NCBI GenBank assembly: GCA_043803945.1
Contig: JAZDJN010000027.1
Location: 7,931-71,930, forward strand
From: a bacterium
Lineage (GTDB): Bacteria > Bacteroidota > Ignavibacteria > UBA10030
Direction of reading: 5' to 3'
Length of the DNA stretch: 64,000 nucleotides
Shown here: in pieces, positions 44,945-64,000 of the stretch
Position numbering within the stretch: the first letter of the stretch is position 1
Layout of the letters: every line of letters begins with the position of its first letter
The notes under the pieces: model-generated
What the model saw: the letters and a program-made list of their open reading frames with translations, nothing else
Databases searched by the model: none
Told to the model about the DNA's origin: nothing
Position numbers and translations under genes: made by a program

Positions 44945-45017
44945 TAGGGCTCGAACCTAGACTCTTCTGATCCAGAGTCAGACGTGTTGCCAGTTACACC
45001 ACGGGGCAATTAAAAAT
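44945..45017 (-). tRNA. tRNA-Gln (anticodon CTG)
   Basis: Reverse complement 'TGCCCCGTGGTGTAACTGGCAACACGTCTGACTCTGGATCAGAAGAGTCTAGGTTCGAGCCCTAGCGGGGCAG'. The U1-A72 pair is typical of tRNA-Gln, the anticodon loop is CTCTGGA and the T-arm is CTAGG-TTCGAGC-CCTAG. Confidence 0.8.
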
Positions 45018-45305: not shown

Positions 45306-46382
45306 ATGGATGTTTTTACCATGATGCGCGGCCTCCCGATGGATTTCTCATCTGACGAAAAAAGCTACTCCATCGGAGATCAGTATATGTTCGGTCCCTC
45401 GATCATGGTTTGCCCTGTAACCGAGTACATGTACCATCGCCCGCCGGAGTCAAGCGAACTGGTGCAACGCGATGTTTTCAAAACTAACGACGGTAAGCCC
45501 GGGCTCCTGGCAAGATATTTCAAAGACGCCGACCGACGAATGTTGACACGAGAACAGATCGATCCCAACATCGACATCATATGGTATACAGGTCGCCCGG
45601 ACTATGTCACGGACTCGGCTTATGCGATCCGCTGGGAAGGAAAGCTCATACCGAAGGAGAACGGGAATCATCAATTTCATTTGTTGTGCTATGATAAAAA
45701 ACGTCTATTGCTGAATGGGGATACGCTTCGTATGGTGTACACCAGCGTCGAGCAGTACACTGAACTTGTGAAGTTGGAGAGAGGAAAAGAATATCCTTTT
45801 GTACTTGAAACAGAGAATAGGTCAACCGGAGCTGCACGAATGCGCCTGTTCTGGAAGACACCGTCGATATTCGCGAGAGAGCAAGAGAAGAAGAATAAAG
45901 AAAAAACGAGAACAGTCTATCTTCCCGCTTCTCACCTTTGGTACGATTTCTGGACAGGTGCTCCTTTTAAGGGAGGGCAGACGATCAAGGCTGATGCACC
46001 GATTGAGAAGATTCCTCTCTTCATAAAAGCCGGGTCAATCATCCCGATGGGACCTTTTCTCCAGTACACCACGGAGAAACCTGCCGATCCTCTCGAATTG
46101 CGTATCTATCCCGGAGAACATGGTCGGTTCACCCTCTATGAGGATGAAAACGACAACTACAACTACGAGAAGGGAGTGTATGCGACGATCGAATTCTCCT
46201 GGGACAATGAGCGACGGCAACTCGTCATCGGTGACCGCCAAGGAGAGTTCCCGGGCATGGTGCGTGAGCGCATCATCAAGGTAGTCCTCGTCTCAAAAGA
46301 CCGCGGGACTGGTATCGAGATCTCAGATCGATTCGATGCAGTCGTTACCTATCGTGGTACAGAAATCGTTTTGAAGTTCTGA
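45306..46382 (+). pseudogene. 5'-truncated glycoside hydrolase family 31 gene (C-terminal ~360 aa only, with PA14-like insert)
   Basis: 'DQYMFGPSIMVCPVTEY', 'RTVYLPASHLWYDFWTG...GGQTIKADAPIEKIPLFIKAGSIIP' and 'LELRIYPGEHGRFTLYEDE' are GH31 C-terminal motifs. The PA14-like insert is 'LARYFKD...IRWEGKLIPKENGNHQFHLLCYD'. The N-terminal domain, the catalytic (beta/alpha)8 core and a signal peptide are absent. The ORF starts ~290 bp from the tRNA cluster. Confidence 0.6.
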
Positions 46383-46975
46383 ATAGTTGAAGATCTTTAT
46401 AAAGGAGGAGTTCATTACGAGCAGTTGTTTTTGTGGGACGAGCAAGAATTCAATACAAGCCTACCGCGACACGCTTTAAGTCGGGATCCTATGTACCCGC
46501 TGAAGCCCCGAAGGGTTGAAGGTGGGCCCCATCACAATAGAGGCCGTTTCTGAAAAGACTCGACCTCTTTCTTTTCATGACCCCGACTTGTACCTGCATT
46601 TTGAAGATGGAGCAAACAATAAGACTTCTTTACAGAGCTAAAGAAAGCACGATGTATCACGCTTGATTGGTTTGATGCGGATAGGACAATAATCTGATAT
46701 GGAGTGGCCAACGGAGGAATCAATAAACAACAGATGATCTAATGAACACCAGAGTATCTGCAGACATCGGAAGGTGTGGGGAATGTAGAGACAGTAGAAA
46801 TCTGATGGGTCGTGCTTTGATGATTAAAGAGGTGAGAATGAGCGGAGAGGTCTTGACATTTGAATAATTGGTAGTAATCTTCCTTATAACAGTCTGGAAT
46901 TCTTTGAGCTGCAACGTTGAGCGGTTATACTGTGATGGACAATCGAGCTATAATTCTCTAAAGCGAGGATTGTGT

Positions 46976-48334
46976 ATGTTTCGTAAAATTTTCCTGGTTG
47001 GCATTCTAGCTTTGATAATGTTCTCGTCGTGTTCTCTCATCCAGTTTCTTTATGAGCAGGATGATTTCATTCGCGTGGAGAGGACTCAGTTTACCCACAA
47101 CGGTAAGCCGTACTATTTTGCTGGGATCAACCTCTGGTATGGCTGCTATCTGGGATCTCCCGGAGAAACAGGTGATCGTGAGCGGCTTTGCCGTGAACTC
47201 GATTCATTGCTCGCCTATGGCATTAACAATCTGCGTCTCCTGGCTGCTTCTGAAGATTCATACATACTGCGTTCGATCAAGCCGGCGATTCAACGAGCTC
47301 CCGGTGTTCTCAATGATTCCCTGCTGGTCGGATTAGATTTTGTCCTGGATGAAATGTCAGAGCGGCATATGCATGCTGTGATGTTCTTGAACAATTACTG
47401 GGAATGGTCGGGTGGAATGGCGCAGTATGTCGCTTGGGCCACCGGTGCAGATGGCCCCGATCCGGAAGATCCGGTAAAAGGCTACGGTGGATTTATGGAT
47501 TTTTCAGCGAAGTTTTATTCTACTCCCGAAGCGATGCGGCTGTATGAAGAGTATGTGAAACGGATCGTCACTCGGAGAAATACAATCAATGGCCGCTTGT
47601 ATGCCGAGGATCCAACGATCATGTCGTGGCAGCTCGCGAATGAACCACGCCCCGGCCGGGATGGAGAATCGGGAAAACGAAACCTTGCCGCGTTCAATGC
47701 CTGGATCGAACGGGCTTCGCAGTACATTCATTCCCTGGATACCAATCACCTCGTCTCGACTGGAAGCGAAGGGAAGGTTGGCTGTATTCAACTTGAAGAA
47801 GCGTTTCTCGAATCACACAAATCGGTGTATGTTGATTACCTGACATTTCATCTCTGGCCATTGAATTGGGGATGGTTCAATCCCAAACGCATTACGGAGA
47901 CTCTTCCCTCGTCGGAAGAAAAATCGTTGCAGTACATCAACCTCCATTTTACGCTAGCGAGACAGCTCAACAAGCCAATTGTCATGGAAGAGTTCGGCAT
48001 GGGGCGGGATAGTGCAAATATCCTTCCCGGAACACCGACGACAGCACGCGATCATTTTTATCGAGTTGTCTTCCAGGCACTCTATGATTCTGCACGGGCC
48101 GGTGCACCGATTGCCGGCTCGAATGTCTGGACGTGGGGAGGCGAAGGTGTTGCCCGGCATCCAGACGGTCAATGGCGCAAAGGCGATCCGTTCGTCGGCG
48201 ATCCTCCGCAGGAACCACAGGGAAGAAATTCAATTTTTATTTCGGATACCTCTACCCTAAGTATTCTGCATCGGCACGCACGACTGATGCAGCGGCTTGG
48301 CATTATGGATTCCCTGCTCACCTATAAGAAGTGA
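46976..48334 (+). CDS. GH5-family (clan GH-A) endo-beta-1,4-mannanase-like lipoprotein
   Basis: Lipoprotein signal (MFSSCS). 'WQLANEPR' carries the catalytic acid motif NEP and 'VMEEFGMG' is the nucleophile region. A Trp-rich TIM-barrel pattern is present. Confidence 0.65.
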   Translation: MFRKIFLVGILALIMFSSCSLIQFLYEQDDFIRVERTQFTHNGKPYYFAGINLWYGCYLGSPGETGDRERLCRELDSLLAYGINNLRLLAASEDSYILRSIKPAIQRAPGVLNDSLLVGLDFVLDEMSERHMHAVMFLNNYWEWSGGMAQYVAWATGADGPDPEDPVKGYGGFMDFSAKFYSTPEAMRLYEEYVKRIVTRRNTINGRLYAEDPTIMSWQLANEPRPGRDGESGKRNLAAFNAWIERASQYIHSLDTNHLVSTGSEGKVGCIQLEEAFLESHKSVYVDYLTFHLWPLNWGWFNPKRITETLPSSEEKSLQYINLHFTLARQLNKPIVMEEFGMGRDSANILPGTPTTARDHFYRVVFQALYDSARAGAPIAGSNVWTWGGEGVARHPDGQWRKGDPFVGDPPQEPQGRNSIFISDTSTLSILHRHARLMQRLGIMDSLLTYKK

Positions 48335-48499
48335 CAATGAATTTGAAGATGCAATGGAGATTCCTGCTGATGCGGAACAGTACTGATGAGTCGCTCTCAG
48401 CAGTTACTTGCTTAAAATCTGGTCAACGCCTGCTATGGCGCATGCGGACCAATCGTACGGTACTAATCCACACTTCAACGAATCGTGCCTTAGAATTCT

Positions 48500-51111
48500 A
48501 TGAACCATATCAAAGTCTTGACGTTACTTGCCGTATCGATGATGATCGTGCAGCTTTCAGCTTCCAACGGTGACCGTTCGATGAACATGAACCTGCACAC
48601 TCAATGGAGATTTAAACAGGAAGGAACCGATCGATGGTACTCTGCGGCTGTACCGGGGTGTGTCCATACCGACCTGATGCAAAACGGACTAATTCCAGAT
48701 CCATTTGTTGGAACGAACGAACGCGATCTCCAATGGATTGGTGAAAAGAATTGGATCTATGAGACAACATTCGGCATTCCAGCCGCATTCCTCCGACAGG
48801 ACCATGTCGAACTTATCTTCGAGGGATTGGATACGTATGCAGATGTTACCCTGAACGACAACACCATTCTCCATGCAACAAATATGTTTCGCACATGGCG
48901 AATTGAATGCAAAAGCCTTTTACGAGAGGGGCAGAATCGTTTGGCAATCCGATTCAAAAATGTGTTCGACGAAAATCTCCCTAAACATCGTTCTGCACCC
49001 TTCGAGCTGCAAGCCTTCGATAACAATGATCAGGCAGAGGCAAAGATTTCCATGCATTCCCGCAAAGCCCAGTTCCATTACGGATGGGATTGGGGGCCCC
49101 GGCTAATCACGTGCGGCGTTTGGCGTCCTGTGGCCCTTCAAGCGTGGAGTGGATTCAAGCTTAACCATGTGCATGTCCAGCAACAGAATGTCACAGAAGC
49201 TGGTGCTGATATCCTCTCTGTCATCGCCATCGACTCAGATCGGCCGCGGGAGGTTTCCATACTCATGACGATGGATGACCTCCAGCTTGTTACACAGCGT
49301 GTGAAGCTTCAACAGGGGAAAAATGTTATTCCTCTTACAGGGCATCTGGCCAATCCAAAACTCTGGTGGACGAATGGCTTAGGTGCTCAATACCTCTACT
49401 CGTATCGGCTTATCGTGAAGGATGATTCCGAATTGAGTGATGAGTATACCACATCCATCGGCATCCGTTCTCTGGAAATTGTTCGGGAGAAGGACACACA
49501 CGGTAGAAGCATGTATGTGAAACTGAATGGTGTACCGGTCTTTATGAAAGGGGCTAATTATATCCCGCAGGACAATTTTCAGAATCGGGTGACTCGGGAC
49601 CGTTGCGAACACATTGTTCGTTCTGCCGCAGAAGCGAATATGAACATGCTCCGGGTATGGGGCGGCGGTATTTACGAAGACGATCAATTCTATGAGTTCT
49701 GCGACCGGTACGGTCTCCTTGTGTGGCAGGAAATGATTTTTGCCTGTGCGATGTATCCTGCTGACGGTGACTTTCTGGAAAATGTGCGGCAAGAGGTGAT
49801 TGATAATGTAACCCGAATCCGCAACCATCCCTGTATCGCATTGTATTGCGGCAACAATGAGAATGAAGCTGCCTGGTTTCAGTGGGGATGGAAGCAGAAA
49901 TACGATACACGAACGCAAGAAATTTTTGAACGGAACGCAGAAAGGCTCTTCTATGAAGTAATCCCTTCGGCGCTCCGGGAAGCAGACTCGACACGCTATT
50001 ATCATCCCACTAGTCCGATTGCCGGAATCAAAAATACTCCATACAGCGAAGGTGATATCCACTATTGGGGTGTGTGGCATGGCAAAGAACCGTTCGAGAA
50101 TTTCACTTCCAACATTGCCCGCTTTGTGAGTGAATATGGATTTCAGTCCTACCCTGAACTCTCCACCGTTTCAAAATTCGCCCGGCCGGAAGATCGACAG
50201 CTTCATTCCGATGTGATGCTGTCTCATCAGCGTTGCATGGCGGATGCACGGCGTGACAAAGAGTATGGCAATCGCTTGATACAGACATACATGGATCGAT
50301 GGTACCGTACGCCGAAAGATTTTGAATCATATCTCTATGTCAGTCAGGTTCTTCAGGCTGAAGGAGTACAGGTAGCATTGGAGGCTCATCGCCGGGCAAT
50401 GCCATTTTGCATGGGAAGCTTATACTGGCAGATCGACGATTGCTGGCCGGTGGCATCATGGTCGAGTATCGATTATTACGGCCGCTGGCATCATGGTCGA
50501 GTATCGATTATTACGGCCGCTGGAAAGCACTCCACTATGCAGCAAAAAACTCTTATGCTCCTATTCTGGTTTCTCCAGCGATGTCGAAAGACAGTGTCAT
50601 CCTTATTCTAGTTTCAGATGCATTGAAAGCGTTTGAAGCGTTGCTCGATGTAACGGTGATGGATTTCAACGGCACTCGAATTTCACACCTTACGCTTCCC
50701 GTGACTGTACCGGCGAATAGCTCGGCGAAGATTCCTACCATCCCGAAACAGCAGCTTATCGGAGATGCAAACGAATCCCGATCTGTTATTCACCTGCAAT
50801 TACGACGGGGGCAGGAAACTCTCCACGAACGATACGCCTACTTCCGGCTGCCAAAGGAACTGGAACTACACAAGCCAACCCTGATGAGAGCCATTCAAAA
50901 AAATCTAACGGGATATACCATTGAGTTGGCCGCATCGACACTTGCGAAATCTGTCATGCTTGCCTGCGGTGACGATGCATGTTTCTTCAGCGATAATTAT
51001 TTTGACCTGGTGCCGGGAATTCAAAAGACTATAACGGTAACGACAACAATGAAACAGGATGAATTCGAAAAATCATTGAAGATTATCAGCTTGATCGATA
51101 GTTATCAGTAA
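48500..51111 (+). pseudogene. GH2 beta-mannosidase disrupted by a 35-bp tandem duplication (frameshift splits it into ORFs 48500..50611 and 50407..51111)
   Basis: The N-terminal 'WYSAAVPGCVHTDLMQNGLIPDPF' and 'LIFEGLDTYADVTLN' are typical of beta-mannosidases. The unit 'tggcatcatggtcgagtatcgattattacggccgc' occurs twice in tandem (50451-50485 and 50486-50520). Removing one copy restores the continuous frame '...CWPVASWSSIDYYGRWKALHYAAKN...' and a protein of ~860 aa. Confidence 0.75.
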
Positions 51112-51173
51112 CCTGAATTCTCCGTACTGCTAATTCGATTACAGTCCTCCGTATCCTGAACATTAAACGATCC

Positions 51174-52271
51174 ATGATGATTGTCATTATTCGATTGCTT
51201 GTCTATCTCGCCACACTCTTAGGATCGGCCACTATGCCCTCACCGCTGAAATTCATACCAGCCAACCATCCCTTCATTCAATATAGTGGAAGATGGGATG
51301 TATCCGACACGCTTCACCGCAAGCATTCCTGGCCCGGAGCGTATCTCCGCGCTTCATTCAGCGGTACGAGTATCGGGATCAGGATGAAAGATAATCTGAA
51401 CTATTACAATGTGTATATCGATGGAACGCTGTATAAAATTTTTCGTGGAACCTCGCCGGACGAAGCTGAGTACACCCTTGCGGAAGGTCTGGATTCTTCA
51501 GCGCATGCACTGCTTCTTAGTAAGCGAAATTTCATGTTCGATGCCGTTTTTTCGGTTTCAGGATTACTGATCGAGGAGGGGGCATCGCTTCTTCCTCCGC
51601 CACCGAGGCCGGAGCGAAGAATAGAATTCGTCGGGGATTCCTTCACGGCTGCTGAAGGGAACGAAGCAACCATGCAGGATGTCGCGTGGGAAGATCGTTT
51701 TCCACTCACCAATATTGATCGGGGATTTGCTCCCATCGTTGCCCGTCATTTTGATGCCGAGTATCACACAACCTGCCGCTCCGGCAGCGGGATGGTATGC
51801 AATTGGGAGGGAAATCCAGAGATCACCATTCCGAAGATCTTCAACCGTACATTGATGGAAGCCCCGGAACCGAAATGGGATTTCAGACAATGGAAACCCG
51901 ACCTCATCGTCATTTGCCTCGGCCTGAATGATCACTCGGGATTACGTGATTCCAATGGGAATATCTCTGAGGAAAAATCTTCTTTCTTTCGCAGAGGTTA
52001 TACAGAATTTATCAGTAGACTCCGAACGCTCTATCCCGGTGTGCGACTTCTTGCCGTTGCGGCTCATCCTGAATGGGTCAGAACGAACGTTCATCAGGTT
52101 GTTCAGGAGGAACTCCTCCATGGAATGAAGGATGTTGCATACACAACGTTCGATGAGGTTCCAGGCGGGTATGTCGCGAACAATCACCCAACAGTTGCCA
52201 CGCACGAAAAAATTGCTGAACAGATCATTGCTGCCATCGAACGGGAGAAAATATTTCCGGTGATGAAATAG
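51174..52271 (+). CDS. CE2-like acetyl esterase (N-terminal beta-sandwich + SGNH/GDSL hydrolase)
   Basis: Signal peptide. The GDS motif is 'IEFVGDSFTAAEGN', the SGNH block III is 'VICLGLNDHS' and a C-terminal 'NNHPTVATHEKIA' is His-containing. Size and architecture fit the CE2 family. Confidence 0.6.
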   Translation: MMIVIIRLLVYLATLLGSATMPSPLKFIPANHPFIQYSGRWDVSDTLHRKHSWPGAYLRASFSGTSIGIRMKDNLNYYNVYIDGTLYKIFRGTSPDEAEYTLAEGLDSSAHALLLSKRNFMFDAVFSVSGLLIEEGASLLPPPPRPERRIEFVGDSFTAAEGNEATMQDVAWEDRFPLTNIDRGFAPIVARHFDAEYHTTCRSGSGMVCNWEGNPEITIPKIFNRTLMEAPEPKWDFRQWKPDLIVICLGLNDHSGLRDSNGNISEEKSSFFRRGYTEFISRLRTLYPGVRLLAVAAHPEWVRTNVHQVVQEELLHGMKDVAYTTFDEVPGGYVANNHPTVATHEKIAEQIIAAIEREKIFPVMK

Positions 52272-52283
52272 CAGTCATATTCA

Positions 52284-53513
52284 ATGTATCCAATGAAAGA
52301 ATTACGAACGATGAGAAGGTGCACTCTACAACGGTTCTTGTTTTACCTAGCTTTGGTGATCTGGAATTCATTCTCCTATGGACAATCACCTCTCCCTCCC
52401 GATGCAAAACTGGAAAAACTTGCCACCGGATTCCTGCAGCCCGAGGGACCAGTATGGAAAGAGGGAGTCGGCCTCCTCTTTAGCGACATCAAACGCAACC
52501 TCATTAATCTCTGGTCGCCGGTGGATGGTTCGATAAAAACATATCTGCAGCCGTCGGATAGTTCCAACGGACTCACATTCGATCGCCATGGCCGTTTAGT
52601 GCTCACACAGATGCGATTGCGCCGGGTATCACGGCAGGAATTGGATGGCACGATCACACCGCTTGCCTCGACATATAATGGTAAGAAACTGAACAGCCCG
52701 AATGATCTCGTGGTGAAATCCGATGGCTCCATTTTCTTTACCGACCCCGATTTTAATATCCCTGTCGGGCAGATAAAAGAATTGAACTTCAAAGGGATTT
52801 ATCGGATTAGTCCCGCCGGCGCGTTGATTCTCCTGGATAGCACATTCGATAAACCGAATGGCATTTGTTTCTCTCCAGATGAACGGAAATTATACGTTTG
52901 CGAGTCGCCGCGCTGCGGCATTTATGTATGGGATGTGATCGGTGATTCCGCGCTTGCGAACAAGAAACTTTTCTTCGCAATCCCCGCAACCGGCTATGCA
53001 GATGGGATGAAAGTTGATGCAGCAGGCAATCTTTACTGCACAGGGCCTACGGGAGTCTGGATTATCTCTCCATCGGGACAATATTTGGGTAAGATTGCTA
53101 CACCTGGAAATCCATCGAACTGTGCCTGGGGTGATGCCGATAGGAGAACCTTATATATTACTGCGGACAGTTCACTGTATAGGATTCGGATGGTCACCAC
53201 AACAAAACAGGAAGAAGAAGAGCATCCAACACCCGACCACTCCGAGCTGTTTCAGAACTATCCGAATCCATTCAATGTCTCGACTATTCTTACGTATCGG
53301 ATTTCGGAAGCCTCGCATATCAATCTCAGGATCTTTGATTCGCTGGGGAATCTTGTCACAACTCTCGTCGACGAGAGGAGAGAGGCGGGTTTCCATGCTC
53401 GAACATTCGATTGCTCGGTGTTGGCGAGCGGTGTTTATCTTGCCCAGCTCATGGCCCGAACGGATCGGACAATCTCCACCTCGCAATCGAAAAAGTTACT
53501 GCTGATACGGTAG
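52284..53513 (+). CDS. SMP-30/gluconolactonase/LRE-like beta-propeller protein with T9SS C-terminal sorting domain
   Basis: 'FLQPEGPVWKEGVGLLFSDIKRNLINLW' and 'NSPNDLVVKSDGSIFFTDP' are propeller-family motifs. The C-terminus 'FQNYPNPFNVSTILTY...SGVYLAQL...KKLLLIR' is a T9SS CTD. Confidence 0.65.
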   Translation: MYPMKELRTMRRCTLQRFLFYLALVIWNSFSYGQSPLPPDAKLEKLATGFLQPEGPVWKEGVGLLFSDIKRNLINLWSPVDGSIKTYLQPSDSSNGLTFDRHGRLVLTQMRLRRVSRQELDGTITPLASTYNGKKLNSPNDLVVKSDGSIFFTDPDFNIPVGQIKELNFKGIYRISPAGALILLDSTFDKPNGICFSPDERKLYVCESPRCGIYVWDVIGDSALANKKLFFAIPATGYADGMKVDAAGNLYCTGPTGVWIISPSGQYLGKIATPGNPSNCAWGDADRRTLYITADSSLYRIRMVTTTKQEEEEHPTPDHSELFQNYPNPFNVSTILTYRISEASHINLRIFDSLGNLVTTLVDERREAGFHARTFDCSVLASGVYLAQLMARTDRTISTSQSKKLLLIR

Positions 53514-53672
53514 TTAATCGATGATCGTTTATATTGCTGCGCGTGAAGGTGAAGTATTGCCTCGCTTTGTATCGTCCGATAGATCCTCAAGAAAAAGAAG
53601 AGAATTTTAAAGAATAGGTGTATATTTGTTTGTCGTACTTGATATGTATGTTCATTCACAGGAGGGGACTCC

Positions 53673-55862
53673 ATGAACCTGGGTAAACATTTTTTCAACT
53701 TGCTTCTTGCACTTATCATTTCACAGGTATCATTTTCACAATCGAACCGGATCACCTATAACAATCAACGACTGTTTCTCAGCGGTGCTAATCTCGCATG
53801 GCTCAGTTTTGCGGGAGATATTGGACCGACACAGGCCAATTATGCAAAGTTCGGAGAAATACTTCTTATGATGCATGACAGCGGCGGGAATTCGATGCGT
53901 TGGTGGCTTCATACCAATGGCACTATCAGTCCGCAATTCAATGATTCGGGGTATGTTATTGGACCGGGAGATGGTACTCTTGATGATTTGAAGAAAGTGT
54001 TGGATCTCGCCTGGGAGCGAGAAATTGGATTGAAACTGTGTCTCTGGTCGTTTGACATGCTTCGCTCTTCCAATAATAGTACAGTTCTCAATCGAAACAG
54101 GCTGATGTTGAATGATACCAACTACACCCGCGCCTATATTAAGAATTGTCTCATTCCATTGGTCAATGCGCTGAAAGGGCATCCCGCGATCGTTGCATGG
54201 GAAATATTTAATGAACCAGAGGGCATGAGCAATGAATTTGGATGGAGCGAAATCCAGCACGTCCCCATGGCCTCTATTCAACGATTCGTTAATCTCTGTG
54301 CTGGAGCGATTCACCGTGCAGATCCGGCAGCTAAAGTGACGAATGGCTGCTGGGCGTTTCTTGCACTCACCGATGTGGCGACAACTTCCATCTCCTTGGG
54401 AAAGATTGGCATAGACCTCTCACAACTGGGTATTGCCGAGAGAGAGGATATGGAAAAACGGTTTACGGATAAATATGGGATAACGCTCACCGCGGAAGAA
54501 ATAGTGCAGCACTATCAACGCGCTGCTCTGCAAGCAAACTATAATTATTACTCCGACAGCCGTCTCATTGCTGCAGGTGGAGATGTTCAGGGAACACTCG
54601 ATTTCTACTCCGTGCATTATTATGATTGGGCAGGGACGTCTCTTTCTCCTTTCAGCCGGCCTGCACTGTTTTGGAATCTGGATAAGCCGATCGTCGTTGC
54701 TGAATTCCATATGAAAGATACATTCGGTGTTCCCAAACAGTATCTCTTTGAAGTCTTGTTCCAGAATGAATATGCAGGTGCCCTGCCATGGTCGTGGACG
54801 GATAACGCCGTCACGAAAGTTGAAGATATGCTGGCTGGAATGAAGTATATGTGGGATAATCATAAGAACGATGTGGATGTTCTCGGCATCGGGGGAGATT
54901 GGCCAATTGTAACGCTTACAGCTCCTGCTCCTGAAACAAAATTTGCCGACACTGCAAAAGTCGTCATTACAGCCGAGGCGTCGGATAAGGATGGTTCTGT
55001 AGCCCGGGTGGAGTTTTTTATCTCGGATACTGTGAGAATTGGAGAGGCCATAACACCGCCGTATACGATGACCTGGTCGAATTTGAAATCAGGATTATAC
55101 GTGATTACAGCAGCAGCGACCGATGACAAGGGTCACAAGCGGATCTCCAAGGGAGTTCAGATCCAGGTGGGTGCGCTTCAGATGACAAGACTGGAAGCCG
55201 AAGGTGCAATCCGATCTGGCACACCGACTGTTCGAAGCGATCCGACAGCAAGCCGTGGTTCCTATGTCACCATGCAGCAGACCGGCACTATTACATGGAC
55301 AATCCCCAGTGTGCCTAAAGATGGAGCTTATGAAATCGTGTTTCGATACAGATTATCTTATAATACACCAAAGAATCAGTATATCAATATCAATGGAGTA
55401 CGTATAACAGAACTGGCATTCACGGGAACAACGAATACATGGCTCGATAAATCATTAACGGTTAATCTTACTGCCGGGCAGAATATTGTACAAATGGAAT
55501 TATCCTGGGGATGGATGGATGTCGATTACCTCTCCGTCCCGGTCACATTCCTCACATCGGTGAAGAGCAACAATGAGCTTCCACTCTATTTTTCTCTTGA
55601 GCAGAATTACCCGAATCCGTTTAATGCAATGACAAATGTCGAATTCCGATTGCTGGTGAGGGCCAAGGTGAAACTGAGTGTGTACGATATCCTCTGCCGT
55701 GAAGTGGCAATACTGGCGCATAGCGACCTGGCGGCAGGAACCCATGCAGTACGGTGGGACGCTTCGAATTTCGCCAGCGGAGTTTACTTCTACAGACTCG
55801 AAGTACAAGATGGTTCACCGGCTGGTGTGATTCAGACAAGGAAAATGGTCCTGGCCAAATAG
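53673..55862 (+). CDS. Secreted clan GH-A (GH5-like) mannanase/glycanase with C-terminal beta-sandwich (CBM/Ig-like) domains and T9SS C-terminal sorting domain
   Basis: Signal peptide. The catalytic region carries 'LFLSGANLAW', 'SMRWWLHTNG', 'AWEIFNEPEG' and 'VVAEFHMKD'. The C-terminus 'EQNYPNPFNAMTNVEF...SGVYFYRL...RKMVLAK' is a T9SS CTD. Confidence 0.6.
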   Translation: MNLGKHFFNLLLALIISQVSFSQSNRITYNNQRLFLSGANLAWLSFAGDIGPTQANYAKFGEILLMMHDSGGNSMRWWLHTNGTISPQFNDSGYVIGPGDGTLDDLKKVLDLAWEREIGLKLCLWSFDMLRSSNNSTVLNRNRLMLNDTNYTRAYIKNCLIPLVNALKGHPAIVAWEIFNEPEGMSNEFGWSEIQHVPMASIQRFVNLCAGAIHRADPAAKVTNGCWAFLALTDVATTSISLGKIGIDLSQLGIAEREDMEKRFTDKYGITLTAEEIVQHYQRAALQANYNYYSDSRLIAAGGDVQGTLDFYSVHYYDWAGTSLSPFSRPALFWNLDKPIVVAEFHMKDTFGVPKQYLFEVLFQNEYAGALPWSWTDNAVTKVEDMLAGMKYMWDNHKNDVDVLGIGGDWPIVTLTAPAPETKFADTAKVVITAEASDKDGSVARVEFFISDTVRIGEAITPPYTMTWSNLKSGLYVITAAATDDKGHKRISKGVQIQVGALQMTRLEAEGAIRSGTPTVRSDPTASRGSYVTMQQTGTITWTIPSVPKDGAYEIVFRYRLSYNTPKNQYININGVRITELAFTGTTNTWLDKSLTVNLTAGQNIVQMELSWGWMDVDYLSVPVTFLTSVKSNNELPLYFSLEQNYPNPFNAMTNVEFRLLVRAKVKLSVYDILCREVAILAHSDLAAGTHAVRWDASNFASGVYFYRLEVQDGSPAGVIQTRKMVLAK

Positions 55863-55930
55863 GCGGGTGAGTTACAGGGTGTGCATACAAATAATTAAGT
55901 GTTGTCACTGTTTACTAACGAGATAGTATT

Positions 55931-58027
55931 TTGATTATAACAAAGGAATCAGCCGTGCAACCTTGCCGATTTTTTCTCTCTGCGGTATCATTGACAATAC
56001 TAACAGTGTCGAGTCTATGGTGCCAGCTTTCCAGCGACATTCGCTTGAATCAGATCGGGTTTTATCCCGCGATGCCAAAGATCGCAATTGTCCGCAATGT
56101 AAGTGCAGCGCCGTTCGCGATTGTATCAACGACAACGTTAGATACCGTCTTCCGCGGCACACTGAGTTCAGCGCAGACATGGCCCTATTCAAATGAGTCT
56201 GTAAGCCGTGCAGAGTTCACCGAATTGCAGACACCCGGCACTTATCGAATTGTGGTACCCGGCTTAGGAACATCGTACCTCTTCACGATTAAACCCCGCA
56301 TTCACCTGAATGTCGCGACCGCCGCGTTGAAGAGCTACTATTATCAGCGTGCATCGATGACGCTCGATGCTGCGTATGCGGGTTCCTGGGCGCGTGCTGC
56401 TGGGCATCCGGATAATAGTGTCCTGATTCATCAGTCGGCGGCAAGCGTGCAGCGTCCGGCAAACAGTACAATCTCCGCTCCTCGCGGATGGTATGATGCC
56501 GGTGATTATAACAAGTATATCGTCAATTCCGGAATATCGACATACACGATTCTTGCGGCGTACGAACACTATCCGGAATTCTGTGATCGACTGGACACAA
56601 ACATTCCTGAGAGCGGCAATGGCGTTCCGGATATACTCGATGAGGCGCTCTGGAACGTACGGTGGATGTTGGCCATGCAGGATCCGAATGATGGAGGAGT
56701 GTACGCCAAACTGACGAATGCGAACTTTGATGGTTTTATCATGCCCGCTGCTGCTACCACGCCGCGCTATGTCGTGAAAAAATCTACCGCTGCTGCATTA
56801 GATTTCGCTGCGGTAACGGCGCAGGCAGCACGGATCACAAAAAAATTTTCTGCTGCACTGCCGGGATTATCAGACTCTTGCTTGCAGGCATCGCTGAAGG
56901 CGTGGCAATGGGCAAGGAACAATCCAGCAGTGTATTATGATCAGGCGCAAATTAATGCTCAATATACTCCCGTAATCAATACGGGAGCATACGGTGATAA
57001 TAATGTCTCCGATGAATTTGCATGGGCGGCTGCAGAGTTATGTGTTACAACGGATCAGGATAGTTTTTTAACGGTGGCGAGCCCTCTCTCGGTCTCCTGG
57101 TTCAACGTCCCCGGATGGCCTGATGTTCGCACACTCGGACTGTACACACTCGCTCAGCATCGTAACACTCTGCCATCATCCATCGATACGAGTATTCTCG
57201 CAGTTCGATTGGTAACGCTGGCAAACATGCTTCGTAATGCTATGACAACTTCTGCCTACCGTGTCGTGATGGGCGCGCAAAGCTCTGATTTTGGATGGGG
57301 AAGTAATTCTGTGGCAGCAAATCAGGGAATGGTGCTCCTGATGGCGTTCAGGATGACAGGCGATACAAGCTATCTGCGCGCCGCCCTGAGCAATCTCGAT
57401 TACCTTCTCGGGAGAAATGGAACGACATTCTGTTTTGTTACCGGTCTTGGATCTCGCTCTCCATTGAATATTCATCATCGCCCCTCAGCTTCAGATGGTG
57501 TCCAGGCACCCGTGCCGGGATTATTAGCCGGAGGGCCGAATCCCAGAATGGAGGATAGTGTGAAGACCTATCCGTCATCGCTGCCCGCTCTGGCGTACAC
57601 CGATAATGTGAATTCCTATGCTTCGAATGAGATTTGTATCAACTGGAATGCACCCCTGGTATACCTCGCCATCGGAATAGAGGCGCACACGTCACCGAAT
57701 GGTTTACCGACCTCGTTGAATCCTGATCCCTCGCATCAGCCGATTCCCGGGTCATACGGACTGTTCCAGAATTATCCCAATCCATTCAATCCCTCAACGA
57801 CGATCAGGTATCAGATACCGGCGACAGGACATGTGACGTTGAAAGTGTTCGACACGCTTGGTTGTGAAGTGACAACCTTGATTGATGAAGTGAAAAGCGA
57901 AGGTTCCTATTCAGTGGTATTTGATGGTGCACATCTTTCGAGCGGTGTCTACTTTGGACGGTTGATGGCACAATCCCGGGATGGTAATCCTGTCGTTGAG
58001 ACAAGAAAGCTTGTCTTGACAAAGTGA
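55931..58027 (+). CDS. GH9-family glycoside hydrolase with N-terminal CelD-like Ig domain and T9SS C-terminal sorting domain
   Basis: 'IRLNQIGFYPAMPKIAIV' is the Ig-like N-domain. 'GWYDAGDYNKYIVNSG' matches the GH9 DAGD motif. 'DEFAWAAAEL' is present. The CTD is 'FQNYPNPFNPSTTIRY...SGVYFGRL...RKLVLTK'. Confidence 0.7.
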   Translation: MIITKESAVQPCRFFLSAVSLTILTVSSLWCQLSSDIRLNQIGFYPAMPKIAIVRNVSAAPFAIVSTTTLDTVFRGTLSSAQTWPYSNESVSRAEFTELQTPGTYRIVVPGLGTSYLFTIKPRIHLNVATAALKSYYYQRASMTLDAAYAGSWARAAGHPDNSVLIHQSAASVQRPANSTISAPRGWYDAGDYNKYIVNSGISTYTILAAYEHYPEFCDRLDTNIPESGNGVPDILDEALWNVRWMLAMQDPNDGGVYAKLTNANFDGFIMPAAATTPRYVVKKSTAAALDFAAVTAQAARITKKFSAALPGLSDSCLQASLKAWQWARNNPAVYYDQAQINAQYTPVINTGAYGDNNVSDEFAWAAAELCVTTDQDSFLTVASPLSVSWFNVPGWPDVRTLGLYTLAQHRNTLPSSIDTSILAVRLVTLANMLRNAMTTSAYRVVMGAQSSDFGWGSNSVAANQGMVLLMAFRMTGDTSYLRAALSNLDYLLGRNGTTFCFVTGLGSRSPLNIHHRPSASDGVQAPVPGLLAGGPNPRMEDSVKTYPSSLPALAYTDNVNSYASNEICINWNAPLVYLAIGIEAHTSPNGLPTSLNPDPSHQPIPGSYGLFQNYPNPFNPSTTIRYQIPATGHVTLKVFDTLGCEVTTLIDEVKSEGSYSVVFDGAHLSSGVYFGRLMAQSRDGNPVVETRKLVLTK

Positions 58028-58204
58028 CTTACGTGTCCCGCTAGAGCCAAGATTGAGAGTCTGAGATTGATACTCTGAACCACCAAGTTCACCAAAATGT
58101 AAAATATTTACTCAGCGTGATATTAACAGTCAAGGTGATTTCCATCTCAGCAGAATGCCGCAGGACCTGATTAATCAATTGTAGTTCTCATGCGGAGTAA
58201 ATTC

Positions 58205-58311
58205 CCCCTTTCGTAAAGGGGGTCCGGGGGATTTGGTTTTTGCTGCGTTAATCTGAGAAGTATTTACAGCTTCCAAAGAAATCCCCCAAATCCCCCTTTG
58301 GCAAAGGGGGA
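58205..58311. repeat. G5/C5 palindromic hairpin cluster between convergent genes (probable bidirectional terminator or REP-like element)
   Basis: There are two hairpins, 'ccccctttcgtaaaggggg' and 'ccccctttggcaaaggggg', in direct orientation ~70 bp apart, flanked by the inverted pair 'gggggatttgg' / 'ccaaatccccc'. Confidence 0.5.
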
Positions 58312-58473
58312 GATAGAAATGAAGGCACTCATTGGGCTGTCGGACATGCTGAGTAAATACAAATATTTTTATAATAGGATTTGAGGACCATTCAGTCAAT
58401 GATTGAAGAGGAGTAAACTTGTTCGTGCTAGAACATCAGGCTTGATATGCAACGCTATCTCGATATTGCTAGG

Positions 58474-60294
58474 TCAATCCGGATCGTACCCGATTTCCAA
58501 TCTTGAGAGTTGAATCCCATCCATCAAATGAATTTTTATGAAGCGATGATCCGGTGGAATATTTACAATTGAATACCGCATCGGGATAAAGGCTTTGTAT
58601 TCATTTTTGAATGGCTCGAATATCTCGTATTTCACCGACAGCGAGGAAGGTGTTTCGGGCGAAGCGCCGGAAAAAAATGTTATGCTGCTGTCCCGATTCG
58701 TTGTGGTGATGAAGACGTCGAGTTGAAGTACGGTTGCCTCTTCCGACAGGCGATAGAGAATGTAGTCGCTTCGTTTTCCTTCCAGGCGGTATTGATCTTC
58801 CTTGGCCTTGGCCGCATCCTTATTACGGATGAAGCTTACTCCAGAGGATTTTTCCACCATCAATTTATCATTCTCGAATTCATCGATAAGAATCCGATAT
58901 GGTGCTTCGATGGGTCCTGCAACGGCTGAGGCCTCCGATATCCCGGAAGTATTCTTTGCTCGAATACGGTACGAGTAACTGACACCAGGTTCTGCCGTGG
59001 TATCCGAAAAAAGAGGACGATATCTGACGTTTGCATCGCTGGCGTTGCTGTCGATAACGCTCCAGCGTGAAAAGAAGAGGAGGAACCGATCCTTCCGTTC
59101 AACAAGGTATGATGAGGCGCCTGTCGATCCTTGCCAGGAAATTTTATAGGGAGTCGTTATGGGCAGTATCGTTGGTGCCGCGGGTATCGGGAGAGGCGCA
59201 ACTGGAAGTCCATTAATAGCATAAGCCTTTTCTGTGAAGAGTTGAATGATCTTTTGCTCCTCCCATCGCTGTCCAGATTCAAAGCCGGGCCATCGGTAGG
59301 CATCTGTGTGGTAGTAATAGCCTCCATCACGATTATGCCCGCGCATACTCCACACCATGATTCCGGAAATACCTGATGAAATAACAGCATCGAGCACCAG
59401 GCGCATGCTATCCGCGGGCATGAAGCCAAACTCCCCGACAAAGTACGGTTTCTTCCCCTTTGCTTTTTCCCGCGCTGTGAGCATTAAAGTTATGGTTTGA
59501 TACGCAGGCCGATAATGATGTGTCGAGAGAATATCGATGTTGGGATCGGCAAGAGCTTCGTCCAAGATAGACTGGCTATGAGTTCCTTCGATGACCAGAT
59601 GGTTGGTATCGAGACTTTTGATATAAGCAGCAATTTCTCTTGTCCAAGCGAAGGTCGGTACATCAAGTTCGTTGCCGGTTTCCCATCCGAGAAGAGCTTT
59701 ATCGTCTTTGAAGGGGAGACCGGTATAGGTGTTGACACGATTGACCATGAAGGCAATCGTCTTCTTGAAATCGGCAATCACAACGGAGTCCGTCCAAAAT
59801 GCTTCACGCGGTTTACCGCGTAAACGCCCATAGTCGGTAACACCGCCCCACCACCACCAGTTATCGATCAGAGGGATAATAACACGTACGCCTACCTCAT
59901 TGGCAATCTGGAGAATTTTGTCGTACGCTTTGAACGCTTCTTCGTTAAACTGCCCCGGCCCTTCTACGTGCCTGATGATGCGTGGATCATCGTTCGCTTT
60001 TCGGATCGAAGGAGTATAGAGGCGAGTGACCATTCCGCCCGACTGCTTGATGGCGTTTAGTGCATCACGAATCTCGAATTCGTTCGCCACCCGCCATGGA
60101 TTCGGATCGTCAAATGCCTGATGGTCTTCAATGTAGTGCAGGTTCGGAATATTGTATGAAATGAACCGGAGCTCCCAATCTCCATCCATTAACTTGTCGC
60201 CTGCTGCCGTGATGAAGTGACTGAATTGTCCATTCACAGATTGAATGAGCGTGAAAACGCAGCAGAGTAGAAAGGTGACGAGATTACGGTTCAT
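58474..60294 (-). CDS. GH5-family glycoside hydrolase (mannanase/glucanase-like) with C-terminal accessory beta-sandwich domains
   Basis: Signal peptide at the probable start MNRNLVTFLLCCVF (60294); the ORF is open to 60411. 'LLGWETGNELD' carries the acid/base motif NEL. 'KPYFVGEFGF' is the nucleophile region. 'IDNWWWWGG' is present. Confidence 0.65.
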   Translation of the reverse strand: MNRNLVTFLLCCVFTLIQSVNGQFSHFITAAGDKLMDGDWELRFISYNIPNLHYIEDHQAFDDPNPWRVANEFEIRDALNAIKQSGGMVTRLYTPSIRKANDDPRIIRHVEGPGQFNEEAFKAYDKILQIANEVGVRVIIPLIDNWWWWGGVTDYGRLRGKPREAFWTDSVVIADFKKTIAFMVNRVNTYTGLPFKDDKALLGWETGNELDVPTFAWTREIAAYIKSLDTNHLVIEGTHSQSILDEALADPNIDILSTHHYRPAYQTITLMLTAREKAKGKKPYFVGEFGFMPADSMRLVLDAVISSGISGIMVWSMRGHNRDGGYYYHTDAYRWPGFESGQRWEEQKIIQLFTEKAYAINGLPVAPLPIPAAPTILPITTPYKISWQGSTGASSYLVERKDRFLLFFSRWSVIDSNASDANVRYRPLFSDTTAEPGVSYSYRIRAKNTSGISEASAVAGPIEAPYRILIDEFENDKLMVEKSSGVSFIRNKDAAKAKEDQYRLEGKRSDYILYRLSEEATVLQLDVFITTTNRDSSITFFSGASPETPSSLSVKYEIFEPFKNEYKAFIPMRYSIVNIPPDHRFIKIHLMDGIQLSRLEIGYDPD

Positions 60295-60568
60295 TGAGAT
60301 GGCTCTCGATAAGTGATTACGAGTAAGTGCTCTGCGCACATGGAGCGCAGACCATATCTTGAGTAATGTACTGTACAAGAAAGAAACAAAGTAGCAGAAT
60401 TCTCTTCTCAAGGTTGTTTCGGAATGAAGCTTACTCTGGAAATTATAATCAGAAAGGTAACGTTCTTGTAGTGTGGTTAATAAAAATCGCCCAATCTCCC
60501 TCTCTCCTTGTATTCACTCCCCCAATTACTTTCCTCTCAATCTCCTACACTCATACCCTCTCACACTC

Positions 60569-61756
60569 TTATTGTCGTTTTAAGATTGTAAGGTTTCTCT
60601 TAATAAGCTGTACTCTCTGCTGCACGCTCATTCCTGTGCGTAATCCATCCTCGGGTGTATGAAGCACATAGTCGAGCAGTTTCTCTATGCTTGAGACAGC
60701 GGCATGCATTCTTGTATCAGAAGAACCGTAATAGATAAGTACTTCCCCGTTTGAGCGCATGACCCAGCCACTGCTGAAGACCACGTTGGAAACATCGCCA
60801 ATTCTCTCCATTCCTTCGGGAGCCAGGAAGTATCCGGCCGGCCGGGTCATCACTTTCGAAGGATCTTTCAGATTGGTGAGAAAGAGGTAGAGAACATAGC
60901 GTAATCCGGCGGCGGTGTTGCGTACTCCATGCGCGAGCTGTAGCCAGCCTTTCTCGGTTTTCAAGGGGGCCGGTCCAAGGCCGTTCTTGGCCTCTTTGAT
61001 CGTATGGTATTCTCGGTCGTCGATAATGATCTCACTCTCGATGACAGCATTGTCGATACTGTCGCACATGCCCCAGCCGATCCCGCCGCCCGATCCGGCT
61101 TCGATGAATCCATCCTGCGGCCGGGTGTAGAAAGCATATTTTCCTCGAATGAATTCAGGATGGAGAACGACGTTGCGTTGCTGTGGAGACTTGGTCACCA
61201 AATCCGGTAAGCGCTCCCAGCTCATAAAGTCCTTCGTTCTCACAATTCCACATTGGGCAATCGCAGAAGAGGTGTCAGTTCTTGATACGTTCGGATCTTT
61301 TCGTTCCGTGCAGAAGAGCCCGTAAATCCAGCCGTCTTCATGCTTGACAAGACGCATATCGTATACGTTGATATCCGGATCCGGGGTTTCCGGGAGTACT
61401 ATCGGAAAATCCCAGAATCGGAACTGATCAACACCGCTGCGCGATTCTGCGATGGCGAAGAACGACTTGCGGTCCACGCCTTCCACACGGACCATAAGAA
61501 GGATTTTGCCATGATACTCGATGGCGCCTGCGTTGAAGGTGGCATTCACACCGAGACGCTCCAGCAGGTGCGGATTTGTTTTGTAGTTCAGATCGTATCG
61601 CCAGAAGATAGGCGTATGGTCTGCTGTCAGTACAGGATTGGTATACCGTTGATAAATGCCGTTTCCCGAACTTGACTTTTTATTTTTCTTTGCAAGAAAA
61701 AGCTTCTGCGCAGCAAGAAGCCGTTTGACGTTACGATTGAATTCAGCTTGTGTCAT
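60569..61756 (-). CDS. GH130-family beta-1,4-mannosyl-glucose / manno-oligosaccharide phosphorylase
   Basis: '[17 protein letters not shown]', '[23 protein letters not shown]', '[19 protein letters not shown]' and '[14 protein letters not shown]' form the GH130 five-bladed propeller motif set. The probable start is [13 protein letters not shown] at 61756; the ORF is open to 61825. Confidence 0.7.
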
Positions 61757-61805
61757 AACTCTTGTTCCTCTTCCATCGAAAACCGGTACTAGGCCGTTTT
61801 GTTTC

Positions 61806-63686
61806 TCACCGTGATGGCCGCACATCGACCGAATTCACAGGGTCCGGTCCGATTTTTATTCGATTGTCAAAATCCGGAGGCAATGTTTCTTTGCTCAACT
61901 CATCGAGTTTATTCCACCAGGTGAATTTTAAAATGATCGAAGTAATGATTATACTCACCGTCACGTTGAACAGCATATGATATTCTTTGGTGACCAGTGA
62001 TATTGGGAAGAGCACCAATGATACCTGCCAGGTGACACCCACGATGATGTTGAAAAGATCTCGTTTAAAATTTCGATTGGGTTCGAATGCCGGGTAATAC
62101 TTATTGACTTTATGCAAGATCGGTTTCCAAAATCCCCAGGGGCGGACCTGCATATAGAATCGCATAAGCACTTCATCCGCCTCTGGTTTGGTCAATAAGC
62201 TTCCCACGATACAGCCGATCAATGACAGAACGAAGACATAGGGGAACGCCATGATGGGAGCGATGGAAGGGAATGCGACCGGGATGATCATCGATGCAGC
62301 GATGCCGGTGATCATGCCCCAGAAATATCCGTGACCGTTTAACCGCCACCAGTACCATTTGAGCACATTCGATGCAGTATATCCACCATACAGGGCGCTC
62401 ACGATCCATAAGGTAACCTGATTAATCGAGTCGACCATAAAACCGAACACAAAACCGATCAGGACGAAAGCAATGGTTGTAATAATGCTCAACTGTACGT
62501 ATTTTTTTTCTTCTGCATGAGGATTAATGAAGCGTTTGTAAATATCGTTAACCACATAGGCAGGTGCGGCATTAATCGTCGCGGCATAGTTGGACATAAA
62601 CGCTGCAATCAATCCGGAGAGGAGAAGCCCAACCAATCCAACAGGAATGATATTCTTGATGATATTGGGGAGAATCATCTCGAAGTCAATGTTCGGTCCC
62701 ATGTCGCGTAAGTGAGGTGAGAAGTAGACAAGCGCGAGCACGGTAATGCCGGAAATCATCATGTAGCGTGGAAGGATGAGTACAATATTAACGAACCAAT
62801 TCATCTTTGCCGCTTCTTTCGGTGAACGTGTGGCAAGGACTCGCTGCATATCGTAGTTGGGAGCCGGGCCTGCCGCACTTTTCAGAATTCCCTGAAACAA
62901 GACCATCATAAAGAAAAATCCAAAAATGCCATAACCATCCTGTTGGATCTTGGTATTCACTGCGTCGATCAATCCCGTCCAATCCAGGTTCAAATGCCAT
63001 CCAAAAAATGGTGTAAGCCATCCTTCGGGGATCACCTGCCGAAGCTGCTCGGGCGAGATCGAGACGAACGCGAGAAATCCGATTGAAAGAGAAGCGATCG
63101 TCAAGACGATGAATTGGAGAAATTCTGTAATCACAACACTGAACATTCCTCCCTTTGCTGCATAAATGGCTGTCAAGGACATCAGGATGATGGCGTACAT
63201 ATCCGGTGAGATGTCCCATGGAAAAAATATTGCAGCGAATTTCCCTATTCCCTTAAATGCGTAGGCGATAAATCCGATGACGCTCACCAATGCGAATATG
63301 ACGACGCTGATATGCGATAAATTTGCGCCTGTACTGTTCCCAAAGCGTGTTTGGATCCATTGTGCGCCAGTCATGACATTGGATTTTCGCAGCCAGATAG
63401 ACAGAAATACCATGAGGAAAATTTGATTGAAGGTAGGCCAAATCCAGGGAAGCCACACGCTTTTAAAGCCATAGACAAACAGAACATACACTAACCACAT
63501 CGTGCCAGTGATATCGAACATCCCCGATGCATCCGAAACGCCAAGCATCCACCATGGCAGCGTGTTATTGCCAAGGAAATATGAATTGATGTTTTTTACA
63601 GCTCGTTTCGAGACCAGGATGCCCAGGGTGATCGCTACGACAAAATAGGTAATGATGATAATCAGATCGATTGGGTGAATTATCAT
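61806..63686 (-). CDS. Sodium:solute symporter (SSS family) transporter
   Basis: 626 aa with ~14 TM helices. The N-terminus '[46 protein letters not shown]' is a typical SSS family start. It is the first gene of an operon with GH130 and GH5. Confidence 0.7.
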
Positions 63687-64000
63687 AGATGAGTTCTTTC
63701 CATCAATGGAATAGTATTTCCCCGGTTTCAGGCATAAAGGATGCCAAACCTACAAAGGCATATTATGCTGTCATTCCCCAATAATACTATGCCTGATTTA
63801 TCAGCATAATAATCTTTTATGGAATTGATAAAAAATCGGGTTATGATAGCGAGTTACCGGGAAAAAGTGAGTGCAAAATGTGAAATTCTGCACCCATTTA
63901 ATGGCAAAGACTTTGCTCATTCTCTAATGCCTAAACTCTCAAATGTAACTCATTCAGGTGTGGAGGGTATATGTTCCTGTCGAGCGCCAGGATTTCAAGA

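Follow-up and report, generated by a model that had tools for sequence, protein, structure and literature searches.

A putative beta-mannan utilization locus combining type IX secretion cargo with a symporter–GH130 unit in an uncultured Ignavibacteria-like bacterium

Toward one end of a 64,000-nt stretch of contig JAZDJN010000027.1 (the window, by which we mean this whole stretch) lie some 18 kb of DNA (45306–63686) which an initial annotation read as a mannan/glucomannan utilization locus, built on cargo enzymes of the type IX secretion system (T9SS) and on a symporter–phosphorylase unit. Which polysaccharide does this locus serve, and by what route would the sugars reach the cytoplasm? This stretch is a real gene cluster which exceeds chance grouping, because ten consecutive genes or gene remnants are carbohydrate-related and six gene types recur together in one related locus (L008). 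Judged by the families of its enzymes, we think it reasonably probable that it is a beta-mannan locus, most likely directed at acetylated glucomannan and operating in three compartments of an uncultured Ignavibacteria-like bacterium. The mannan theme is upheld by three mannanase-type members of glycoside hydrolase (GH) family 5, a GH2 beta-mannosidase, a family 2 carbohydrate esterase (CE2) and a GH130 subfamily 1 (GH130_1) phosphorylase beside a symporter. Family scans likewise recovered the proposed opposite-strand unit of Na+/solute symporter, GH130 and GH5, and the earlier calls of a CE2 esterase, a gluconolactonase-like propeller, a GH9 and a GH5 with beta-sandwich domains all hold. The features, in which CTD denotes a T9SS C-terminal domain, are the following.

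45306–46382, plus strand: GH31 fragment (Pfam/NCBIfam scans)
46976–48334, plus strand: GH5 of the CmMan5A type, probable lipoprotein (1UUQ match, motifs)
48500–51111, plus strand: GH2 beta-mannosidase gene, in two frames (Pfam, match to BtMan2A 2JE8)
50451–50520: exact 35-bp tandem duplication, two copies, inside the GH2 gene (TRF, frame repair)
51174–52271, plus strand: CE2 acetyl esterase with putative signal peptide, without CTD (CE2_N and GDSL)
52311–53513, plus strand: SMP-30/gluconolactonase-like six-bladed propeller (SGL) with a T9SS type A CTD (PF08450, PF18962, TIGR04183)
53673–55862, plus strand: GH5 (mollusc/GH5_10-like) with Big_7, CBM35 and T9SS CTD, predicted secreted endo-beta-mannanase (domains, NEP and AEF motifs)
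55931–58027, plus strand: GH9 endo-beta-1,4-glucanase with N-terminal Ig domain and T9SS CTD (PF00759, CelD_N, TIGR04183)
58474–60294, minus strand: mannanase-like GH5 with putative signal peptide and C-terminal FN3-like/beta-sandwich region, without CTD (3PZ9/1RH9, NEL and GEFG motifs)
60569–61756, minus strand: 4-O-beta-D-mannosyl-D-glucose phosphorylase of the GH130 subfamily 1 type, predicted cytoplasmic (3WAS, 5AY9)
61806–63686, minus strand: sodium:solute symporter (SSS), predicted inner-membrane, first gene of the SSS-GH130-GH5 unit (PF00474)
63798–63831: inverted repeat TTATCA-N22-TGATAA, candidate operator in the 5' region of the symporter gene
63971–64000, plus strand: divergent open reading frame (ORF), first 10 codons MFLSSARISR, interrupted by the end of the window (read from the sequence)
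44565–45008, minus strand: tRNA genes for Arg, Glu and Gln (Rfam)

According to the ORF listing and the Pfam/NCBIfam scans, every gene between 46.9 and 63.7 kb specifies a carbohydrate-active enzyme (CAZyme) or a sugar transporter, and with the remnants included ten of ten consecutive genes are carbohydrate-related. The first 45 kb of the window hold few carbohydrate genes, namely one for a Pel9A-like CTD protein and some for trehalose and glycosyl transfer. The cluster begins directly after the three minus-strand tRNA genes; its plus-strand genes and the minus-strand SSS-GH130-GH5 unit run toward each other. Beyond the GH9 gene the plus strand carries no further GH5 such as had been proposed, and 58028–58473 is intergenic. 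Since a scan for promoters and terminators gave counts equal to the chance expectation, the boundaries of operons cannot be drawn.

The best-supported family call in the cluster is that of the product of 60569–61756 [MFH0989532.1, 395 aa] as a GH130_1 4-O-beta-D-mannosyl-D-glucose phosphorylase, as the initial annotation had proposed. The predicted protein is 63% identical over 388 aa, that is, over its full length, to Bacteroides fragilis BfMGP [575 bits, 3WAS] and also matches Ruminococcus albus RaMP1 [522 bits, 5AY9], while other GH130 subgroups score no more than 112 bits. The aspartate of its YDMR motif, aligned to D131 of BfMGP, is conserved; D131 is reportedly the catalytic residue (Nakae et al. 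2013). The SSS gene [MFH0989533.1] ends 49 bp before the start of the GH130 gene on the same strand. Its product carries PF00474 (109 bits) and has the sugar carriers SGLT1/2 and vSGLT as its nearest, remote, solved structures. The third member of the unit is a GH5 with 67–83 bits to the mannanases 3PZ9 and 1RH9, from Thermotoga and tomato. In the 90% cluster table both the SSS and the GH130 proteins are filed under unrelated representatives of 46–54 aa, and for this reason a homology search starting from the SSS protein gave no 100% match; the short cluster mates P0362, P0363 and P0365 proved to be unrelated peptides.

All three GH5 proteins retain the acid/base and nucleophile motifs, and the nearest solved relatives of all three are mannanases or mannosidases. 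The product of 46976–48334 is 44% identical over 411 aa to the exo-mannosidase Man5A of Cellvibrio mixtus [421 bits, 1UUQ] and has NEP and EEFG catalytic motifs; its N-terminus (MFRKIFLVGILALIMFSSC) looks by eye like a lipoprotein signal. It is thus a probable exo-/endo-beta-mannanase of the CmMan5A type, and presumably the GH5 mannanase lipoprotein described earlier. In the GH2 gene the N-terminal domains recognized by Pfam and the mannosidase Ig domains fall into two different frames. This frameshift, which had been noticed before, is confirmed and can be attributed to the exact 35-bp tandem duplication (TRF: period 35, 2.3 copies, 97% matches): deletion of one copy restores an intact ORF of 858 aa, the product of which scores 720 bits against BtMan2A [2JE8]. 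So perfect a duplication would have arisen very recently if it is a mutation; otherwise it is an artefact of the assembly. The CE2 protein contains CE2_N and GDSL domains with the GDS serine motif at residue 154. Its solved relatives are CtCE2 [2WAO] and CjCE2B [2W9X], and its sole NCBIfam match is AxeC2 (acetylxylan esterase/glucomannan deacetylase), at 91 bits against a cut-off of 500 bits.

T9SS export of enzymes finds support in three proteins whose CTDs exceed the TIGR04183 cut-off of 23 bits: SGL (29.1 bits), GH5-CBM35 (28.8 bits) and GH9 (25.5 bits). The corresponding PF18962 scores are 31.6, 37.4 and 26.2 bits (cut-off 27). TIGR04183 and PF18962 scans found no such domain on the other six proteins of the cluster, so that the "several" carriers of the initial annotation are real and number exactly three. 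To the eye, N-termini look hydrophobic and have plausible cleavage sites. A fourth cargo, unrelated to the mannan cluster, is the Pel9A-like beta-helix protein of the pectate-lyase type specified by 963–2501, and on this account the T9SS signal is in use elsewhere in the genome.

The GH5-CBM35-CTD protein has the mollusc mannanases 3VUP and 2C0H as its nearest solved relatives. The GH9 protein (PF00759, 278 bits) displays the DAGD and C-terminal NE motifs and is closest among solved structures to BoGH9A [495 bits, 6DHT]; this affinity to a xyloglucan locus had previously been overlooked. The SGL protein, the start of which was set according to the NCBI product [MFH0989528.1, 400 aa], matches PF08450 at 162 bits and has the exported gluconolactonase 3DR2 as its solved relative. 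Orthologues of this SGL-CTD protein, 70–74% identical, are found in the Ignavibacteria clusters L085, L086 and L087 among genes for GH95, GH43-CBM6, PF00756 esterases, GH115 and GH51. Because the orthologues occur in such hemicellulose and esterase clusters, the SGL-CTD protein is, by its gene neighborhoods, an accessory of plant-cell-wall clusters in general, frequently found beside esterases, and not specific for mannan.

How general is this gene set? For synteny, 84 loci (L numbers) were searched by tblastn with 20 reference proteins; the nearest loci are the 14 in which the SSS is at least 66% identical to that of the window. Among the matches listed, the closest SSS relatives (80–84% identity, those listed from the genome collection reaching at most 83%) derive from metagenomes of fens and peat and from metagenome-assembled genomes labeled Ignavibacteriae, Ignavibacteriaceae or, loosely, "Bacteroidota," which supports the Ignavibacteria-like source assumed earlier. 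Of the 14 nearest loci, 13 have GH130 directly after SSS. L011 and L059 repeat the complete SSS-GH130-GH5 succession of the window; within the 84 loci the SSS-GH130 pairing also occurs in Acidobacteriota, Bryobacterales, Verrucomicrobiota, Lewinellaceae and others.

The plus-strand gene types, that is, Man5A-type GH5, GH2, CE2, GH5-CBM35 and GH9, are found again, no more than 10 kb from SSS-GH130, in L004, L005, L007, L008, L012, L014, L059 and L075. Six of the gene types of the window recur within 12 kb of the pair in L008, which has SSS, GH130, two GH5s, CE2, GH2 and a Man5A-type GH5; L004 has GH5-CBM35-CTD and CE2, L005 a Man5A-type GH5 and GH9, and in both L012 and L014 a full-length GH31 accompanies GH5-CBM35 and a Man5A-type GH5. 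This recurrence argues for a functional connection between the plus-strand genes and the minus-strand unit of the window, their order having been shuffled. In about 25 acidobacterial loci (L021–L081) a GH9 gene is located 70–340 bp upstream of SSS. These acidobacterial GH9 proteins are 36–39% identical to that of the window, and an epimerase-GH130 pair usually lies within 8 kb; the set GH9-SSS-epimerase-GH130 is conserved across phyla.

The initial annotation had expected the 2-epimerase partner of the phosphorylase just beyond 63.7 kb. In Pfam scans of the 64-kb window none of the ORFs of 150 aa or more matched PF07221, the L004 epimerase as a tblastn query gave no window match at E<1e-10, and a profile of six relatives' epimerases gave no match from the source contig among the best 120 of 4666. 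The epimerase gene is downstream of GH130 in seven of the 14 nearest loci, being on the opposite strand in L002/L003, L004, L006 and L007 and about 9 kb away in L012 and L014, and upstream of the symporter in none. None lies within 10 kb in the other loci, among them L005, L008, L009, L010, L013 and L059, nor nearby in L075. In the window the position homologous to that of the relatives' downstream epimerase is taken directly by the GH5 gene. What precedes SSS in five relatives (L002, L003, L006, L008 and L009) is a divergent gene for a SASA-type esterase, the ATG of which lies 266–299 bp from the SSS start; in the window the distance to the divergent ATG of MFLSSARISR is 285 bp. An epimerase immediately upstream of the symporter is accordingly unlikely to judge from the relatives, which place it downstream of GH130 or nowhere nearby.

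Upstream of the symporter we found the inverted repeat TTATCA-N22-TGATAA. The window contains a single instance of this repeat (chance expectation 0.11), the core of which, together with a TGGCAT box, is conserved upstream of SSS in L004–L008. The repeat may be the operator of a regulator; family scans disclosed no regulator gene in the cluster. A sigma-54 reading of the TGGCAT box was rejected, since only the window and L006 fit GG-N10-GC.

Based upon CTDs, signal sequences and nearest relatives, we infer the following route. Outside the cell, T9SS would export the GH5-Big_7-CBM35 endo-mannanase, the GH9 endo-beta-1,4-glucanase and the SGL propeller, and the first two would cut the polymer at the cell surface. 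In the periplasm, or at the inner face of the outer membrane, the enzymes with putative signal peptides and without CTD (the CmMan5A-like GH5 lipoprotein, CE2, the second GH5 and, when intact, GH2) would deacetylate and trim the oligosaccharides to disaccharides. SSS would then import Man-beta-1,4-Glc and possibly mannobiose, and in the cytoplasm GH130_1 would convert Man-beta-1,4-Glc and phosphate to alpha-mannose-1-phosphate and glucose. Mannanases would require mannose at the -1 subsite and so yield mannose reducing ends; a beta-glucanase with glucose at -1, presumably the GH9, could free Man-beta-1,4-Glc directly from glucomannan. Such cleavage after glucose would account both for the association with GH9 and for working without an epimerase.

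A GH5 identity was considered for the product of 45306–46382, the opening ORF of the interval. That identity is ruled out by the presence of PA14, of the GH31 C-terminal domain [Glyco_hydro_31_3rd] and of DUF5110, and by its alignment with residues ~600–955 of the alpha-xylosidases BoGH31A [5JOU] and CjXyl31A [2XVG]; it is a truncated, PA14-bearing GH31 alpha-xylosidase, a remnant which escaped the initial annotation. The last ~358 aa are kept and about 600 N-terminal codons are gone. The frame opens only at 45231, with AT-rich non-coding DNA and tRNA-Gln directly upstream, which marks the fragment as 5'-truncated. Lacking both the catalytic barrel and a signal peptide, it is probably a pseudogene.

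Several points weigh against the reading as a beta-mannan locus. The GH5 subfamilies were taken from the nearest solved structures, not from dbCAN. The GH2 gene is frameshifted and the GH31 gene truncated, and the nearest solved relatives of GH9 and of the GH31 remnant both belong to the xyloglucan locus of Bacteroides ovatus. The SGL orthologues sit in non-mannan hemicellulose clusters. No operator motif shared between the two strands was found; TTATCA-N22-TGATAA stands only before SSS, and there is therefore no evidence for co-regulation of both strands. With no epimerase in 64 kb, pure mannan or mannobiose could not feed GH130_1 unless the epimerase is encoded elsewhere. Finally, no outer-membrane importer is visible in the window. 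Scans with Pfam and NCBIfam (TIGR04056) showed no SusC/SusD among its ORFs of at least 150 aa, and Pfam scans no TonB-dependent receptor (TBDT) in 45–64 kb; the one TBDT-like ORF (4590–7220) is 40 kb away, in a FecR/ECF-sigma unit, with 54 bits against a cut-off of 368 bits. The absence of both importer and epimerase could be an effect of the window edge, the full locus being TBDT-centered, similar to the CUT loci discussed below, and continuing past 64 kb. We regard this as a distinct possibility. Only 314 bp separate the symporter from the end of the window, whereas the source contig measures 100,382 bp; a TBDT lies 3–10 kb upstream of SSS in five of about 12 nearest relatives (L002/L003, L004, L006, L014 and L059), but none occurs within 10 kb upstream in L005, L007, L008, L009, L010 and L013. 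Where present, this receptor is of the TIGR01782 (Xanthomonas/Caulobacter) type [345–362 bits, cut-off 310] and not of the SusC/RagA type [69 bits, cut-off 368], and its neighbor is a T9SS-CTD protein of 650–900 aa, not SusD (L002 1800–7018; L004 1210–7047; L039 4151–9706). This CTD protein could take the place of SusD in function, or bind glycans at the surface. The statement that the locus operates "instead of SusC/SusD" is thus true within the window and holds only as far as its edge, given the upstream TBDT of the relatives. The lineage is probably without SusC/D at these loci, and a TonB-dependent importer is likely to exist, perhaps beyond the window. To go further and propose a glucomannan-specialized pathway independent of an epimerase, in which GH5 and GH9 would release Man-Glc for SSS import and GH130_1, and uptake would be through a Xanthomonas/Caulobacter-type TonB receptor with a T9SS-anchored surface protein, seems to us quite unlikely to be right.

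The evidence also bears on two readings that depart from the mannan locus itself. One would make this a mixed hemicellulose locus for xyloglucan, beta-glucan and glucomannan, in which only the SSS-GH130-GH5 unit is mannan-specific. The 495-bit match of GH9 to BoGH9A and the nearness of the GH31 remnant to the xyloglucan alpha-xylosidases would agree with this, as would the full-length GH31 genes beside Man5A-type GH5 genes in L012, L014, L008 and L037, the company of GH95, GH43, GH115, GH51 and esterase genes kept by the SGL orthologues, and the lack of a common operator motif on both strands. Yet the interval contains no GH5_4, GH74, GH16 or GH12 endo-xyloglucanase, no beta-galactosidase and no GH3 beta-glucosidase, its GH31 is inactivated, and five of the eight enzymes with intact frames, plus the repaired GH2, are mannan-related by their nearest relative. 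BoGH9A-like enzymes, moreover, are generic weak endo-glucanases. We therefore consider a mixed locus unlikely. On the other reading the locus is decaying and has lost part of its function, being a relic of rearrangement beside the tRNA cluster. GH2 is disrupted, GH31 has lost its N-terminal codons next to three tRNA genes, and the epimerase of half of the 14 nearest loci is not at the homologous place; however, frames and catalytic motifs are intact in eight other enzyme and transporter genes, a perfect duplication can arise as an artefact of assembly or polishing of a metagenome-assembled genome, GH2 would be partly redundant with the exo-acting Man5A-type GH5, and the relatives L005, L008, L059 and L075 likewise lack a nearby epimerase. 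Erosion appears to us very unlikely, and a locus for beta-mannan, most likely acetylated glucomannan, is the interpretation we retain.

Comparison with known systems places the locus more precisely. Senoura et al. 2011 (BBRC 408:701, listed as reference 47 in PMC8353096) reportedly defined the pathway of symporter, GH130_1, epimerase and mannanase from the B. fragilis operon BF0771-0774. As in that operon a mannanase, a cation symporter and GH130_1 are encoded together, the phosphorylase being the one 63% identical to BfMGP; of the traits of this pathway the window shows GH130_1, the adjacent symporter and endo-mannanases, and is without the PF07221 epimerase. It differs further in that its mannanases are GH5 and not GH26, in its three T9SS-CTD enzymes and in its SSS-family symporter, a putative counterpart of BF0773. 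A second comparison is the man5A-unk(GH130)-epiA cluster of C. mixtus, said to have been described by Centeno et al. 2006. Here too a CmMan5A-type GH5 is encoded with GH130 for intracellular processing of mannosides; the Cellvibrio cluster is proteobacterial, includes the epimerase EpiA and has no T9SS. The CUT loci with TonB-dependent receptors, reportedly described by Blanvillain et al. 2007 from Xanthomonas and Caulobacter, resemble the window's relatives in pairing enzymes with a TIGR01782 receptor and an inner-membrane transporter without SusD, whereas the window itself has no such receptor and the receptor of the relatives neighbors a T9SS-CTD protein.

Beta-mannan polysaccharide utilization loci (PULs) of the SusC/SusD type, which include the BoMan PUL of B. 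ovatus, are a further comparison. The window is without a SusC/SusD pair, GH26, GH27/GH36 alpha-galactosidase, AraC/HTCS regulator and epimerase, and has GH9 and T9SS cargo domains; lacking adjacent TIGR04056 susC-like and susD-like genes within 45–64 kb, the locus does not, as far as the window reaches, qualify as a PUL sensu stricto. The beta-mannan SusC/D PUL of Muricauda sp. MAR_2010_75, which has symporter, GH130 and epimerase (PMC9860051), shares with the window endo-mannanases, CE2, symporter and GH130, and thereby the presumed cytosolic phosphorolysis of manno-gluco-disaccharides. In Melioribacter roseus, of the same class-level lineage, most CAZymes bearing carbohydrate-binding modules (CBMs) carry a Por sorting domain, and the SSS transporter Mros0509 lies beside the mannanase Mros0511 (Kadnikov et al. 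2013, PMC3534657). CBM-bearing glycosidases with Por/T9SS CTDs and an SSS near a mannanase are thus common to both, and Melioribacter-type loci (L010, L013) do have SSS and GH130; gene complement and order differ, and in both organisms the mannan role of the SSS-GH130 module is putative. A literature search on Ignavibacteria with GH130, or T9SS with CAZymes, turned up nothing specific to this module. To call the locus a distinct strategy is an overstatement, Por/T9SS-tagged CBM glycosidases having been described for M. roseus in 2013 (PMC3534657). It is built from known parts, the general strategy has already been described in the lineage, and its value is mainly one of annotation.

Its significance lies in how a member of the Bacteroidota-Chlorobiota-Ignavibacteriota group outside the Bacteroidia, related to organisms of fens and peat, may consume glucomannan of the softwood or moss type, by joining T9SS-secreted enzymes to phosphorolysis through GH130, which saves energy. 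Across the sampled loci, Ignavibacteriota, Acidobacteriota, Verrucomicrobiota and others share the SSS-GH130 module. To our knowledge no SSS-family carrier has yet been characterized for any disaccharide. Being part of a module spread over phyla, this carrier would be a reasonable target as the first biochemically characterized mannosyl-glucose/mannobiose:Na+ symporter of its family.

Between the GH31 remnant and the first GH5 gene lies a non-coding gap of 590 bp (46383–46975) with a 19-bp tandem repeat (46709–46759, 2.7 copies); Rfam recognized three tRNAs only, and no riboswitch or leader in this gap. The truncation point of GH31 coincides with the start of the three-tRNA cluster (Arg, Glu, Gln), and the junction suggests a rearrangement or deletion. 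A 22-nt direct repeat (44387–44408 and 44561–44582, 95% identical, 174 bp apart) is a copy of the 3' end of tRNA-Arg. The copy at 44387–44408 is followed by tRNA-like sequence and might be a decayed tRNA copy or the scar of an old att site.

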